Source: a virus
Virus genome (UHGV): UHGV-0056732
Strand: one strand, 5' to 3'
Length of the DNA stretch: 12,987 bases
Made by a program: the position numbers and the translations under genes. Shown here piece by piece: positions 609 through 12,987 of the stretch (positions are counted from its first letter, which is position 1; each line of letters starts with the position of its first letter). A model generated the notes under the pieces. That model was not told the DNA's origin, made no database searches, and worked only from the letters and a program-made list of their open reading frames with translations.

Positions 609-729
609 GATTTTTACTCTAATGCGTTGTTCTTATGAGTCTGCGAATTTTAAAGAACAAAGCGTTATGCACAGAAATAACAATCTGAATAGGTTCCTGC
701 TTGATTTTTGTTAGATCCGGGAGGAGCTT

Positions 730-1014
730 ATGCAGATTTTGATTTTTTTAATGTCCATTATTAGTGGAACCTATTTATTTCTTACTGGAGTTAGGCGTGG
801 AGCTTATAAGCCATGTTTTTTACATTGGCTTGAAGCATGGCTGCTTGCCATAAAAGGTGGTTTTGTTGGTTTTTGTCTTGCAGAAGTTCAGTGGGGAAAC
901 TCATTTTTGGATGTGGTTGCTTTTTTGATATGTAGTTGGAATAGCCATTTTGTATTAAGAATAACCAAAATATGGGTTTTTCACTTGATTTACGAATGTA
1001 TTGGCAAATTATGA
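730..1014 (+). CDS. Hypothetical small membrane protein, 94 aa, about three predicted hydrophobic helices
   Basis: ATG at 730 preceded by a strong SD (GGGAGGAG, 5-nt spacer); 94 open codons in visibly AT/T-rich DNA where stops are frequent; W/F/L/I-rich with three hydrophobic segments. No homolog recognised; could still be spurious. Confidence 0.4.
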   Translation: MQILIFLMSIISGTYLFLTGVRRGAYKPCFLHWLEAWLLAIKGGFVGFCLAEVQWGNSFLDVVAFLICSWNSHFVLRITKIWVFHLIYECIGKL

Positions 1015-1027
1015 ACAACCAGATGAG

Positions 1028-2434: not shown

Positions 2435-4321
2435 ATGGAACAGTTCAATATCAATAAAGGGGTGACGATCAAGCCTGGGCTTGACGTGCTTCCCCCGCCA
2501 GTGACTGATGATGAATATCGCGCATTAATGGCCGGTGAGGACCGCTATCTGATGACGGAATCCAACACCCTGGAGGAAATCGAGGCTACGTTCTTCTATG
2601 ACACGCCGATCCACTGGTGTGCTACGGATTTACTGGAGGCGATTAGTTCTACTCGTTTGCAGCTACACCGGACCATGCAGGCATTTGTCCGGGCATTGAA
2701 CCAGAAGCTGAATGGTACCGGAATCTCTGCGGGGAGTGATAAAACGGGGGATGTGGCCCAGAACGGTGCACGCGCGATCGGCGGGGCTGAAATTGGCCGG
2801 GCACGTAACGTTAACGGGCTGCCGGTCCTGCCAGCCATTATTCCGCTCAGTGATGGTCAGACTATCAGCATTCTGTTTCATAGCCCGACAGCGGAAAACC
2901 GGATCACCAATAGCGATACGCTGATTGCTTTCCAGTTCTTACTGAATAAAAAAGACGTTACTCATACCGTTGCTCCGATGAGTGGACGTGATATGACGCT
3001 GGCGCAGGTCACCATGAAACTTGCCAACCTTGCAGAGAAAAACTCGGCAAAATTCCAGCGTGCGCAGAAGAAGAAAAAAGCCCTGGTTGATGAAATAACC
3101 CAACTACAGGCTGACAGTGACCAGAAAGAGGATGCCATGAGCGACCTCGCGGATCAGGTGGCAGCGGTAGAAGGGCAGAAGGTAGATCTGGAGCAGAAAA
3201 TTAACGCTGTTGCATCGGAAGCGGATTCTCTTTATGAAGAGAATGAGCGTTTGCAGACGGAGATTGATCAGCTCAATCGAACTGGTGGGCGCGAAACCAT
3301 TGCTCCTGCGGGGATGACTGGTGGACACTCTCGCGCGATGACGGATCGCCTTGCAAGTATCAAAAATCGTATGCATATGAACGGGGAAGTGACGCTCAGT
3401 AATGGTGCATCAATGAAGCAATTCATTGAGGACGGTGAAGGGTATATCCAGTTAACCGATTCGGATGGCAGCGTGTACATGATCAAGGCTAAATCCATAC
3501 AGGGTGTGGACATGGCAGATGCGATCGGCAAGCTGTTTAAAGCCTATAAAGCGGGTAATGTATCGGAATACCTGGTCCAACCAGAAGAACATAAACCGGA
3601 AAACGTCGAACCTGAACCAGAAGTCTCTGTAGGTGCATATCGATATGCCCTGCAAATGCGTCCGGCGGCCCCTGGCGCAATACCTGAAGGTAACAAAGCA
3701 ATTCTGCTGCGCCCTGATGAAGGTGACCCGTATTATGAATATGCACGCTACGGCATTGCTACTTACGATACCCCGCTTTCTGATCAGCAAATGAGTGAGT
3801 ACGACCTGAAGTTATTGCCTCGCGAGGATTCTTTCGACTTCCTGGCGAAGACACTTACTAATGGTCCGTTTGGCAAATATGCACAAAAAGCTCTGGAGCT
3901 GGCCACCAGCTCACCAGACGAGTTCCGCGTAATGCTGAAAACTCAGTTTCAAAAAACTTTCCCCAATATTGCGTTTCCGGGGGGCGCTGGCACCGAGAAA
4001 ATGGTGCAGAGCATGATCAATGCATTGCAGGCCGAAGTCGGTGAGATTACTCAGCCAGAACCGGCCCCGGCACAGCCTGATGAAACGGTTAGCGAAGCAG
4101 ATGCAGAGGCTAATAAAGCCATTGAATATCTCAATAACGTGATGGATATGCAAAGCACTGACATGGCGGAGATCCGTAACGCCCGGGGCAATGTCCGGGA
4201 AGCGATTGCAGCCCTTCAGGCTGCCGGACGTTTTGAGGAAAACGAAGAGCTGGTTAACGGCGCAGCTCGCCACCTGGCTGATCTGCTGGTAGCAATCCAG
4301 AAAGCGGGGGTAGCGGCATGA
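2435..4321 (+). CDS. darA: DarA-like virion-packaged anti-restriction / head protein, 628 aa
   Basis: ATG at 2435; size and operon position match P1 darA as recalled; central coiled-coil (about residues 200-285); shares a motif with hdf; stop overlaps the ddrA start (ATGA at 4318-4321). Confidence 0.7.
   Translation: MEQFNINKGVTIKPGLDVLPPPVTDDEYRALMAGEDRYLMTESNTLEEIEATFFYDTPIHWCATDLLEAISSTRLQLHRTMQAFVRALNQKLNGTGISAGSDKTGDVAQNGARAIGGAEIGRARNVNGLPVLPAIIPLSDGQTISILFHSPTAENRITNSDTLIAFQFLLNKKDVTHTVAPMSGRDMTLAQVTMKLANLAEKNSAKFQRAQKKKKALVDEITQLQADSDQKEDAMSDLADQVAAVEGQKVDLEQKINAVASEADSLYEENERLQTEIDQLNRTGGRETIAPAGMTGGHSRAMTDRLASIKNRMHMNGEVTLSNGASMKQFIEDGEGYIQLTDSDGSVYMIKAKSIQGVDMADAIGKLFKAYKAGNVSEYLVQPEEHKPENVEPEPEVSVGAYRYALQMRPAAPGAIPEGNKAILLRPDEGDPYYEYARYGIATYDTPLSDQQMSEYDLKLLPREDSFDFLAKTLTNGPFGKYAQKALELATSSPDEFRVMLKTQFQKTFPNIAFPGGAGTEKMVQSMINALQAEVGEITQPEPAPAQPDETVSEADAEANKAIEYLNNVMDMQSTDMAEIRNARGNVREAIAALQAAGRFEENEELVNGAARHLADLLVAIQKAGVAA
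3038..3058 (+). repeat. 21-nt direct repeat copy 2 (within darA), encoding KNSAKFQ
   Basis: AAAAACTCGGCAAAATTCCAG; single mismatch relative to 2140-2160. Confidence 0.6.
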
Positions 4322-7683: not shown

Positions 7684-7993
7684 AATCGCAGCGCCATTAG
7701 GCGGAGATGCCATTATCGAATTTGATGATAATGAAGAAGTTTCCGGGCGTTTGAGCATTATCTCCGGTGACATTACCGAGGACATGATCGCTGAAGCCAT
7801 AGCTGGGGCAAATCCCAATAGCTATATGGGATTCGTTAACACCCTTGATGCTCCCGCAAGTGATGTTCTCCGAACGCTGCATCTTTACGCTGGCTGGTTT
7901 GTTGATTGGCCAGCAGTAGATGGTGGCGATGAGGATGATGATGACGATGAAGAGGTTTTTAGTGATGAAACAGTAAACCAACTCTTGTATTGA
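7673..7993 (+). CDS. Hypothetical highly acidic protein, 106 aa, translationally coupled to ddrB
   Basis: ATG at 7673 overlapping the ddrB 3' end by 11 nt, SD AAGGAG 7 nt upstream; poly-acidic C-terminus DGGDEDDDDDEEVFSDE; about 27 D/E versus 3-4 K/R. Confidence 0.6.
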   Translation: MQIKIAAPLGGDAIIEFDDNEEVSGRLSIISGDITEDMIAEAIAGANPNSYMGFVNTLDAPASDVLRTLHLYAGWFVDWPAVDGGDEDDDDDEEVFSDETVNQLLY

Positions 7994-8123
7994 CAGGAAT
8001 TGGCATAGAATTGATTGTTCAAATTTCATCCATCACATAGACGACTTCATGTTATTTGCCTGATAATTATGGCCTTAATAACCCATGTATATCTTTTGGG
8101 TTATATTCTTATCTTTAACAAGG

Positions 8124-8167
8124 TTATAAGAGCGACAATGATAAATTTATCACTATCGCTCTTATAA
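8124..8167. repeat. 44-bp near-perfect palindrome between convergent genes; possible terminator and/or protein-binding site
   Basis: TTATAAGAGCGACAAT-GATAAATTTATC-ACTATCGCTCTTATAA: 16-bp arms (14/16 complementary) around a perfect 12-bp palindromic core; followed by T-rich CTCTTTGTT; lies between the stop of the 106-aa ORF (7993) and the stop of the minus-strand 95-aa ORF (8197). Confidence 0.5.
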
Positions 8168-8196
8168 CTCTTTGTTAGCTATAGCTTTAAACAAAT

Positions 8197-8484
8197 TTAG
8201 TTTTGAGGCAATGCAACAAAAGTCAGCTCTTGATCTTTGATTAATGCTTTTGTTTGTTTGGATGTAATTCCCACTTTAGTTTTTACATCATTGTGGAGCT
8301 TCTTATACGCTTTTATTTCATCTGCTGTATATCGGAAGCCATTTGCACTGTTACTGGACAGTTGAAGTGCGATTACGTCATCACTGACACCCGCATCGCT
8401 TAGCTTAGCTATGCGGGTAATAGTGTGGCCTGCGCGAGTGTTTGGGGTGGATATTTTGTCTAAGAAATTGTTCAGTTTTTCCAT
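8197..8484 (-). CDS. Hypothetical small protein, 95 aa, possibly HTH DNA-binding, in an AT-rich island
   Basis: ATG at 8484 with SD AGAGG 9 nt upstream; segment HTITRIAKLSDAGVSDDVIALQL resembles a helix-turn-helix; visibly AT-rich flanks; own upstream region separated from the 263-aa gene by a terminator. Confidence 0.55.
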   Translation of the reverse strand: MEKLNNFLDKISTPNTRAGHTITRIAKLSDAGVSDDVIALQLSSNSANGFRYTADEIKAYKKLHNDVKTKVGITSKQTKALIKDQELTFVALPQN

Positions 8485-8706
8485 TGTTTACAACCTCTTA
8501 CTTGAGTTTATTGCCAGTAGAATTGCTACTATTCTTTTGCCTCAACGAATCACAATGTACTGGAATAAGAAACTATGAGCAATACTTACGCTTTGCGAAT
8601 ACAGAAGATGAATAATCAACTTATTACTAAAATGTTAATAATATTATTCTGTTACATAGTGTTCGCTATAACAATCGGGAGTTGAATGCTAATTCAATAA
8701 ATAAAG

Positions 8707-8732
8707 ACCCCGCCAATTGGCGGGTTCTTTTT
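8707..8732 (-). terminator. Rho-independent terminator just downstream of the 263-aa gene; also usable on the plus strand
   Basis: GC stem CCCGCC(8709-8714)/GGCGGG(8719-8724) with 4-nt loop AATT; T-run TTCTTTTT (8725-8732) on plus, GTCTTTATT on minus. Confidence 0.6.
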
Positions 8733-10268: not shown

Positions 10269-10287
10269 AAGTGATTTGCATTATCCT
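10269..10287 (+). promoter_or_regulatory. Candidate P1-type late promoter for lyz
   Basis: AAGTGATTT (10269-10277) - GCAT - TATCCT (10282-10287); same architecture and spacing as the lydA-upstream element. Confidence 0.4.
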
Positions 10288-10374
10288 GTGCCTTCTAAAG
10301 GGATCGAGTCAGTCGGTATTGGCTGTGAATGGGTGTTTGTCCTGGAGCGTAAAAAATTCGCTTATGAGGTCTTT

Positions 10375-10932
10375 ATGAAGGGAAAAACAGCCGCAGGAGG
10401 CGGTGCAATTTGCGCTATCGCGGTGATGATTACCATCGTGATGGGTAATGGCAATGTGCGAACCAACCAGGCGGGGCTTGAGCTGATTGGTAACGCTGAA
10501 GGTTGCCGACGTGATCCATACATGTGCCCTGCGGGGGTATGGACTGACGGGATCGGTAATACACACGGGGTAACGCCGGGTGTGCGAAAAACCGACCAGC
10601 AAATCGCCGCTGATTGGGAAAAGAATATCCTGATCGCTGAACGCTGTATTAATCAGCACTTCCGGGGCAAAGACATGCCCGATAATGCCTTCAGTGCAAT
10701 GACAAGCGCGGCATTCAATATGGGATGCAATAGCTTACGGACCTACTACAGCAAAGCGCGAGGCATGCGAGTAGAAACGTCCATCCACAAGTGGGCGCAG
10801 AAAGGGGAATGGGTGAATATGTGTAACCATCTCCCTGATTTCGTGAACAGTAACGGCGTGCCCCTGCGAGGTTTAAAGATTCGCCGTGAAAAAGAACGCC
10901 AGCTTTGCCTGACGGGACTGGTCAATGAATAA
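10375..10932 (+). CDS. lyz: SAR endolysin (T4-type lysozyme with N-terminal signal-anchor-release domain), 185 aa
   Basis: ATG at 10375 with GAGG SD; N-terminus MKGKTAAGGGAICAIAVMITIVMGNG is a Gly/Ala-rich weakly hydrophobic SAR helix; Cys13, Cys44, Cys51 with Glu42 and Thr57 reproduce the disulfide-isomerisation arrangement described for P1 Lyz; lysozyme core (NAEGCRRDPYMCPAGVWTDGIGNTHGV). Confidence 0.9.
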   Translation: MKGKTAAGGGAICAIAVMITIVMGNGNVRTNQAGLELIGNAEGCRRDPYMCPAGVWTDGIGNTHGVTPGVRKTDQQIAADWEKNILIAERCINQHFRGKDMPDNAFSAMTSAAFNMGCNSLRTYYSKARGMRVETSIHKWAQKGEWVNMCNHLPDFVNSNGVPLRGLKIRREKERQLCLTGLVNE

Positions 10933-11179
10933 ACTCCGGCAGCTCCGCCGACTTTCGACAATGAAGTTATCGCTGGCGGCGATAGTTTTCGACTCGATTT
11001 TCATGGCGGTATATGTGCTCAATGAGACGTGGCCACTGGAACCGCTATTGTATGCCGGGCTTCGGCTGTGCCTGACATTTTTGAGCATGGCTGCAAGATT
11101 GATGCAGCAGAAAGAAACCGCTTCAGATTGTCCACGCCGCGCGGTGCGCAAATATATGGCACGCAGGCGAAGGCGATAA
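10925..11179 (+). CDS. Hypothetical small membrane protein, 84 aa, coupled to lyz; candidate lysis accessory (holin/antiholin-like)
   Basis: ATG at 10925 overlaps the lyz stop (ATGAATAA); two hydrophobic segments (LSLAAIVFDSIFMAVYVL; LLYAGLRLCLTFLSMAARL); Arg-rich C-terminus ARRRRR; followed by a terminator. Confidence 0.5.
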   Translation: MNKLRQLRRLSTMKLSLAAIVFDSIFMAVYVLNETWPLEPLLYAGLRLCLTFLSMAARLMQQKETASDCPRRAVRKYMARRRRR

Positions 11180-11192
11180 TAGTTAACGAGAA

Positions 11193-11218
11193 CCCCGGCA
11201 GCCGCCGGGGTTATTTTT
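11193..11218 (+). terminator. Rho-independent terminator ending the lyz transcription unit
   Basis: Stem CCCCGGC(11193-11199)/GCCGGGG(11204-11210), loop AGCC, then TTATTTTT (11211-11218); sits between convergent lyz-side genes and pro. Confidence 0.65.
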
Positions 11219-11223
11219 GGTGG

Positions 11224-12987
<1,764 letters not shown>

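Follow-up and report, generated by a model that had tools for sequence, protein, structure and literature searches.

The closest described relative of the locus analyzed here is the lyz-lydD(-lydE) operon of bacteriophage P1 (AF234172/NC_005856, Lobocka 2004 annotation). Bednarek et al. 2022 identified its LydD protein as a pinholin that cooperates with the endolysin Lyz beside the canonical holins LydA and LydC (PMC9025707). A plasmid carrying both lyz and lydD brought about faster and more complete lysis than lyz alone, and LydD together with Lyz was sufficient for plaque formation as well as for lysis from plasmids (PMC9025707). Furthermore, a lydA lydD double mutant formed no plaques, while plaques were still formed by a lydA lydC mutant, and the removal of lydD shifted the morphology of lysis from the type seen with a SAR endolysin and a pinholin to the canonical type (PMC9025707). 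The soluble R endolysin of phage lambda was not supported by LydD, neither when R replaced lyz in P1 (lyz::R) nor in a two-plasmid system (PMC9025707). The weights of LydD, LydA, and LydC depend on the host and on the conditions. In shaken liquid culture, LydA is the main holin and LydD is accessory, and LydD alone did not lyse E. coli in such cultures when both lydA and lydC had been inactivated (PMC9025707). Because of this last result, the contribution of LydD is best regarded as condition-dependent. P1 Lyz is also the protein on which the SAR segment was defined (PMC9025707). An E-8x-C/D-5x-T catalytic triad has been described for such enzymes, and in P1 Lyz the triad cysteine is blocked in a disulfide until activation (PMC3556154).

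The S21-68/R21 pair of phage 21 follows the same logic, in that a small protein with two transmembrane segments depolarizes the membrane and thereby releases and activates an adjacent SAR-tethered lysozyme of the T4 type. R21 becomes active by refolding without a disulfide switch, in contrast to Lyz with its Cys13, Cys44, and Cys51. The model in which these three cysteines of P1 Lyz undergo disulfide isomerization was reportedly put forward by Xu et al. in 2005 (Science 307:113). Disulfide caging of a SAR endolysin is said to have been described by Kuty et al. in 2010 for Lyz103 of Erwinia phage ERA103. Lyz103 resembles P1 Lyz as a SAR endolysin whose regulation depends on a cysteine located in the SAR helix, but it differs in the arrangement of its cysteines and in its mechanism, which is one of caging rather than isomerization.

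The window examined in the current study is the whole stretch of viral DNA that was analyzed, with a length of 12,987 nucleotides. Over its full length it shares about 98% DNA identity with P1 coordinates 18270-32267, in reverse orientation. Within this stretch, a region of about 1.1 kb around lyz-lydD is 98.3-99.2% identical at the DNA level to 19 records of P1-type phages, which include P1, P7, RCS47, and SJ46. Lyz and LydD of the window are each 100% identical to the P1 proteins, and the DNA differences in lyz-lydD (approximately 1%) are only silent or intergenic. The promoter region, the 8-nt gene overlap, the terminator, and the flanking genes ssb and pro are likewise common to P1 and the window. 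We are therefore highly confident that positions 10375-11179 on the plus strand come from a P1-type phage (Punavirus) and represent its late lysis operon, lyz-lydD. We encountered no evidence that contradicts this identification, although the mechanistic detail proposed for LydD stands on weaker ground. The feature is thus already known and has been characterized experimentally (Bednarek et al. 2022, PMC9025707). Beyond the operon, the window departs from P1 in its lydC allele and in the isaB/IS1 region. The window also encodes LydA (1075-1404), LydC (730-1014, the divergent allele), and LydB (1401-1844). The features of the locus itself are collected in Table 1.

Table 1. Coordinates of the lyz-lydD operon and its neighbors in the window, with the basis for each assignment.
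Feature	Coordinates	Strand	Basis and details
Late promoter LPlyz	10269..10287	+	-22 box at 10269-10277 (AAGTGATTT) and -10 element at 10282-10287; transferred from the P1 annotation AF234172
lyz, SAR endolysin (T4-type lysozyme), 185 aa	10375..10932	+	100% identity to P1 Lyz; Pfam; PHROG
SAR helix of Lyz, about residues 5-27 (TAAGGGAICAIAVMITIVMGNGN), Cys13 codon 10411-10413	10387..10455	+	Hydropathy, composition
Catalytic/regulatory segment of Lyz: Glu42 10498-10500, Cys44 10504-10506, Cys51 10525-10527, Thr57 10543-10545	10498..10545	+	Sequence
Overlap of lydD start and lyz stop (ATGAATAA), 8 nt	10925..10932	+	Read from the sequence
lydD, 84-aa pinholin	10925..11179	+	100% identity to P1 LydD; PHROG 21930; PMC9025707
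Hydrophobic helix 1 of LydD (residues 15-33; Asp23 invariant)	10967..11023	+	Hydropathy; AF2 helix 3-35
Hydrophobic helix 2 of LydD (residues 41-60; Tyr43, Arg47, Thr51, and Arg58 invariant)	11045..11104	+	Hydropathy; AF2 helix 40-66
Basic C-terminal tail of LydD, residues 71-84, ending in RRRRR	11135..11176	+	Sequence
lydE ORF, 71 aa, GTG start; putative antiholin in P1 annotation, probably no real gene	11029..11244	+	Conservation, terminator position
Intrinsic terminator of lyz-lydD	11191..11219	+	9-bp GC-rich stem (11191-11212) followed by ATTTTTGGTG; terminator scan
pro, head-processing gene, convergent	11224-12273	-	P1 annotation

The LPlyz stretch of the window is identical to that of P1, with the closest mismatch in the alignment at position 10291. 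The ATG of lyz at 10375 is preceded by GAGG, and its TAA stop codon (10930-10932) lies within the lydD reading frame, which runs from an ATG at 10925 to a stop codon at 11177-11179. Only a weak GGGA is found upstream of the lydD ATG, and the two genes overlap by either 8 nt or 4 nt in relatives. Such overlapping start and stop codons suggest that lyz and lydD may be translationally coupled. The terminator is strong and is located 12 nt past the lydD stop codon, where it faces the nearby 3′ end of pro, a gene that runs toward the operon.

The original prediction, which described the first gene as a SAR endolysin of the P1 Lyz type with a regulatory Cys13/Cys44/Cys51 set, holds in full. Lyz of the window is identical not only to the P1 protein but also to the chains of PDB entries 1XJT and 1XJU (1XJT, E=1.8e-128). 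Its T4-type (GH24) lysozyme domain is recognized by the Pfam family Phage_lysozyme (PF00959; 80.3 bits, cut-off 22.3), and it matches PHROG 7, an endolysin group. The sole hydrophobic segment of the protein covers residues ~5-27 and is rich in Gly, Ala, and Thr, which fits a SAR helix. With a Kyte-Doolittle (KD) mean of up to 2.24 and a simple Hessa sum of about 0.5 kcal/mol, its composition and hydropathy are those predicted for an uncleaved, releasable SAR segment. Lyz has cysteines at positions 13, 44, 51, 91, 118, 150, and 178. The first of these resides in the SAR helix, and the next two are part of the stretch of residues 42-57 (EGCRRDPYMCPAGVWT), which can be written as E42-G-C44-RRDPYM-C51-PAGVW-T57 and which thus has the triad spacing Glu42-8x-Cys51-5x-Thr57 with Cys44 in addition. 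A cysteine in the SAR helix and a cysteine pair of which one member occupies the triad position (Glu-8x-Cys-5x-Thr) are therefore both present, and C13, E42, C44, C51, and T57 are all invariant in Lyz relatives that are 82-83% identical.

The second gene had been described originally as an overlapping ORF of 84 amino acids with two hydrophobic segments and an RRRRR tail, all of which are present, and as perhaps a counterpart of P1 lydD with holin- or pinholin-like character. It is exactly LydD, whose function as a pinholin has been established by experiment (PMC9025707). The protein matches phrog_21930, annotated 'holin', with E=9e-59. Four residues near its N-terminus are basic (K3, R5, R8, and R9), the loop between the two hydrophobic segments (NETWPLEP) is acidic, and the tail has a net charge of about +8. 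Given this distribution of charges, LydD most likely inserts as a two-helix hairpin in an N-in/C-in orientation, such that both ends would be cytoplasmic. Each hydrophobic segment contains one charged residue, D23 in the first (~15-33) and R47 in the second (~41-60), and both helices are only marginally hydrophobic, with simple Hessa sums of approximately +3.7 to +3.9 kcal/mol. An AF2 model of moderate confidence (pLDDT 71.5) places helices at residues 3-35, 40-66, and 69-83, with a turn at W36-E39. The two predicted transmembrane helices and the location beside a SAR endolysin gene, with a synteny that is conserved, are as expected for a pinholin. Moreover, the functional property that defines this class, namely serving a SAR endolysin and not a soluble one, has been shown experimentally for a protein identical to LydD (PMC9025707).

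The pattern of conservation provides additional information on LydD. Plasmid prophages related to P1 in Salmonella, Klebsiella, and other Enterobacteriaceae keep the order ssb / lyz / lydD and encode proteins that are 82-83% (Lyz) and 75-83% (LydD) identical to those of the window. Over the first 104 nt of lydD, P1-like relatives of about 80% identity differ at 2-6, 4-5, and 17-19 sites in codon positions 1, 2, and 3, respectively. Because substitutions fall mainly at the third position, lydD appears to be under purifying selection. A word-indexed search for homologs returned only P1-like LydD proteins of 77-85% identity and some frameshifted variants. When 1.84 billion representative proteins were searched exhaustively with an HMM, only 14 clusters were recovered at E<=1e-3, and therefore the LydD clade is small. 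A 45%-identical LydD homolog on a 94-kb P1-like viral contig (L010) follows a SAR-helix lysozyme with the same cysteine pattern and overlaps it by 8 nt. In an alignment of 12 family members, A19, D23, E34, Y43, R47, T51, A57, and R58 are invariant, and the most conserved feature of the clade is the presence of charged residues inside both hydrophobic helices. By comparison, conservation does not extend to the RRRRR tail. In P1-like relatives the terminus is basic yet variable (RRRKLV, RRRKQV, KRRKLS, or SRRESA), and distant members have short tails that are not basic.

Profile comparisons indicate that LydD is a divergent relative of the Pfam family DUF7940 (PF25612). LydD by itself scores 22.8 bits against this family (E=1.4e-4), which falls under the gathering threshold of 27 and so does not suffice for membership. 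However, of the 12 sequences in the alignment of LydD with its relatives, 11 do match this family, the best with E=5e-13. When an LydD-clade profile built from the broader alignment was compared with core DUF7940, hhalign reported a probability of 97.8% and E=1.3e-12 over the full length, which is at the level of homology, whereas a shallow profile made from a P1-only LydD alignment remained below significance (probability 1.8%, E=0.028). Core DUF7940 proteins resemble LydD in size, in their two-helix architecture, in a basic N-terminal motif, and in the motif R-[LM]-[VI]-x-Q, which follows helix 2. The N-terminal basic segment has the form K-x-I-x-x-W-K/R-x-x-W-K/R and is conserved in the LydD/DUF7940 family. 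They differ in that the aligned members lack the Asp23 and Arg47 that are invariant in the LydD clade, in that the long basic tail is missing, and in that a SAR helix is absent from the endolysins that accompany some of them.

Core DUF7940 members reside in lysis cassettes with endolysins and spanins. In one such locus (L024), a lysozyme with an Ala-rich, hydrophobic N-terminal segment is followed, after a 4-nt overlap, by a DUF7940 homolog, and then by a DUF2514 protein with an N-terminal transmembrane helix and an embedded lipoprotein frame, as expected for an i-/o-spanin pair. In two others (L011 and L012), an M15-like peptidase (a weak, sub-threshold match) precedes the homolog, which in turn is followed by a spanin-like pair. 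In a fourth (L018), the homolog comes before a lysozyme without a transmembrane segment, and spanin-like ORFs are found thereafter. No mention of DUF7940 was found in the literature that was searched.

Despite the shared logic, LydD differs from the pinholin of phage 21 in several respects. There is no detectable sequence homology between the two, and a Pfam scan of LydD at E<=0.1 returned only DUF7940. The gene order also differs from that of phage 21, since in the window the gene for the pinholin comes after that for the endolysin. Four of the 12 residues in the N-terminus of LydD are basic, and its helix 2 (LLYAGLRLCLTFLSMAARLM) contains a single Gly and lacks a glycine zipper (PMC9025707). 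LydD thus does not qualify for the S21 sequence family, which is marked by homology itself, an externalizable helix 1 with a short and weakly charged N-terminus, and the glycine zipper. In phage 21, the addition of positive charges to the N-terminus blocks the exit of helix 1 and turns the protein into an inhibitor (PMC9025707). Because LydD has a charged N-terminus and lacks the zipper, the hole-forming pathway of phage 21 is not simply transferable to it, and the pathway that involves exit of helix 1 probably does not apply. Bednarek et al. likewise concluded that the pathway of LydD must differ from that of S21-68 (PMC9025707). Since the strongly basic N-terminus is conserved, helix 1 of LydD probably does not leave the membrane, in contrast to its counterpart in the phage 21 pinholin. 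When the conservation of this segment across the family is considered together with the effect of added charges in phage 21, it seems reasonable to propose that the holes are probably formed with both helices in the bilayer. The Asp23/Arg47 pair probably has a functional role, perhaps as an interhelix salt bridge or in lining the pore, and these residues are natural candidates for a pore-lining or gating element of LydD.

Several other interpretations of the locus were weighed against the one favored here. It is very unlikely that LydD is not a pinholin at all but rather a canonical holin that makes large holes, or an antiholin-type regulator of LydA and LydC. Two transmembrane segments and a charged C-terminus do not allow holins to be distinguished from pinholins by sequence, and the basic N-terminus of LydD is reminiscent of a phage 21 pinholin variant that was engineered to act as an inhibitor (PMC9025707). 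In addition, some DUF7940 relatives adjoin endolysins that lack an N-terminal transmembrane segment, namely the lysozyme of L018 and the M15-like peptidase of L011, and because they lack this segment a lone pinholin could not serve them. These points are outweighed by the experimental record. LydD accelerates lysis by Lyz and is sufficient with it for plaques, which is not the behavior of an inhibitor, and its failure with lambda R, seen independently in two set-ups, argues that it does not make large holes (PMC9025707). The antiholin alternative that had been raised at first for the second gene is therefore unsupported, given that LydD promotes lysis. Its role relative to lydA and lydB, which had seemed unclear, has been settled in that, in shaken liquid culture, LydA is the principal holin and LydD is accessory (PMC9025707).

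A related possibility is that lydD is read from two start codons, such that the 84-aa form that begins with Met1 would be an anti-pinholin and the 72-aa form that begins with Met13 would be the active pinholin. Known analogs are S107/S105 of phage lambda and S71/S68 of phage 21. In LydD, Met13 is followed by Lys and then by helix 1, and both Met1 and Met13 are invariant in P1-like relatives that are 75-83% identical. The 12 residues added in the longer form carry four positive charges, and charges placed there block triggering in phage 21 (PMC9025707). However, no sequence resembling a Shine-Dalgarno element is present before the Met13 codon (CCGACTTTCGACAATG), and distant family members have L, I, V, or M at this position. 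The basic N-terminal segment, by contrast, is conserved throughout the family, which argues that it is not an optional extension, and full-length lydD is known to promote lysis (PMC9025707). The lack of a Shine-Dalgarno sequence at Met13 and the opposite conservation of Met13 and the basic segment led us to downgrade the dual-start idea, which we now consider improbable.

An anti-pinholin might instead be provided by lydE, which would complete a lyz-lydD-lydE module. This ORF is annotated in P1 records as 'putative antiholin', antiholin genes often overlap holin genes, and the frame is intact in the window, where 70 of its 71 residues (99%) are as in P1 and the single change is R59 versus C59. 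Nevertheless, we hold the existence of such a functional anti-pinholin to be most improbable. The terminator of the operon lies inside the ORF, and the predicted product has neither a hydrophobic or transmembrane segment nor a match in PHROG. One or two stop codons interrupt the frame in every divergent relative. Over the same bases, identity in the LydE frame is 33-43% compared to 69-78% in the LydD frame, and the third codon position of lydE is the least variable and the first the most variable, which is the opposite of what is seen in a coding frame. Moreover, deletion of lydE produced no lysis phenotype (PMC9025707). LydE thus shows neither the conserved coding frame nor the effect on lysis timing that would be expected of an antiholin. 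On the basis of its conservation, the position of the terminator, and the published deletion (PMC9025707), the proposal that lydE is an anti-pinholin was rejected. Considering the frame conservation, the terminator, the absence of a hydrophobic segment or PHROG match, and the null phenotype together, lydE is most likely an annotation artifact and not a gene. Curators may wish to note that it stands as 'putative antiholin' in the P1 reference records without any sign of being a gene.

Likewise, a spanin of the Rz/Rz1 type embedded in the operon was ruled out, in agreement with the initial reading that no Rz1-type frame is present. A lipobox scan of all six frames from 10300 to 11300 revealed no frame with a signal peptide and lipobox Cys inside lyz or lydD. 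A lone LAAC match at 11297 is beyond the terminator and antisense to pro. The predicted spanins of P1, ppfA/mlp, are encoded in another operon (PMC9025707).

With LydD regarded as a pinholin and Lyz as its SAR endolysin, the probable course of events for lysis can be outlined. Lyz is exported by the host Sec system and is then tethered to the inner membrane through its N-terminal SAR helix, which is only weakly hydrophobic. In this tethered state Lyz is enzymatically dead because a disulfide to Cys44 blocks Cys51 of the triad. LydD, translated from the start codon that overlaps the lyz stop codon, would form small holes at a set time and collapse the membrane potential. Depolarization allows the SAR helix to leave the bilayer, upon which Cys13 attacks the Cys44-Cys51 disulfide, such that Cys51 is freed, the active site refolds, and the cell wall is degraded. 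Because its holes would be small, LydD serves only a self-exporting (SAR) endolysin and not a soluble one, and in P1 it acts beside LydA and LydC, which are large-hole holins, and beside the antiholin LydB. The export of Lyz and its disulfide mechanism have been shown in the literature for the identical protein. For Lyz of the window, the isomerization of Cys13, Cys44, and Cys51 rests on its identity with 1XJT/1XJU, on the published statement regarding the blocked triad cysteine (PMC3556154), and on the model attributed above to Xu et al. 2005.

From the perspective of annotation, the two genes should be labeled lyz (SAR endolysin) and lydD (pinholin), and their source should be given as a P1-type phage or plasmid prophage. 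The finding of a lyz-lydD pair as originally described adds nothing new to the biology of lysis. What may extend beyond it is a modest lead rather than a discovery, and it concerns hole formation by a route other than that of S21 and the link between DUF7940 and lysis. Perhaps LydD and its DUF7940 relatives constitute a mechanistically distinct class of small lysis-membrane proteins, in which both helices would remain in the bilayer, held there by the conserved basic amphipathic N-terminus, and in which Asp23 and Arg47 of the LydD clade would gate or line the pore. We offer this proposal tentatively and consider it rather doubtful at present. Asp23 and Arg47 are obvious targets for mutagenesis aimed at a pinholin action that differs from that of S21. 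Furthermore, as an experimentally characterized protein, LydD is a possible functional anchor for DUF7940, a Pfam family to which no function has been assigned. If the proposal is true, it would mean that there is a pinhole route other than the exit of helix 1 in phage 21, and it would provide a function for DUF7940.

The annotation of lydE as a putative antiholin gene in P1 was reconsidered by comparison with relatives. The lydE ORF contains the intrinsic terminator of the lyz-lydD operon, is interrupted by in-frame stops in relatives, and lacks coding-type conservation. Over the same bases, amino-acid identity in relatives is 33-43% for the lydE frame versus 69-78% for the pinholin LydD. Thus, lydE is probably not a gene. 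The lydE frame also surfaces in P0008, an 85-aa database protein that originates from a Logan assembly. This protein matches LydD through residue 52 and then switches to the lydE frame (FEHGCEIDAAERNRF...), and it is a frameshifted LydD-LydE fusion. The frameshift might stem from an error in sequencing, or it might be a natural knockout of lydD.

Features in the window and in related loci
Feature	Location	Strand	Remark
Segment at lydC position	662-1017		No nucleotide match to P1
94-aa ORF, lydC position	730-1014	+	PHROG 1527 member
95-aa ORF	8197-8484	-	Within 782-bp replacement segment
lydE ORF	11029-11244	+	P1 annotation "putative antiholin"
DUF7940 protein and GH24 lysozyme without N-terminal TM/SAR segment	L018 1856-2562
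DUF7940 protein and M15-like peptidase without N-terminal TM/SAR segment	L011 2633-3207
ProQ/FinO-domain and RepL-like genes	L002-L009, about 2733-4285	-	Convergent on lydD

Elsewhere in the window, the third holin of this phage is a divergent allele, because the 94-aa ORF shares only 30% identity with the large-hole holin LydC of P1, yet clearly belongs to the LydA/LydC holin family (PHROG 1527, E=1e-35). The adjoining cin invertase end (1-661) is ~94% identical to P1 versus ~98% across the rest of the window, and this drop suggests a mosaic junction near lydC/cin. At 7949-8730, an unrelated 782 bp replaces isaB and IS1 of P1, and no PHROG match was found for its 95-aa ORF.

In the divergent P1-like plasmid prophages (L002-L009), ssb-lyz-lydD occupies a different neighborhood, because the genes that converge on lydD encode ProQ/FinO-domain and RepL-like proteins in place of pro/prt. 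Core members of DUF7940, the Pfam family of which LydD is a divergent relative, adjoin endolysins lacking an N-terminal TM/SAR segment in two loci (L018 and L011), and L011 has further small TM ORFs upstream. For some members of this family, the role of a pinholin acting alone is impossible.
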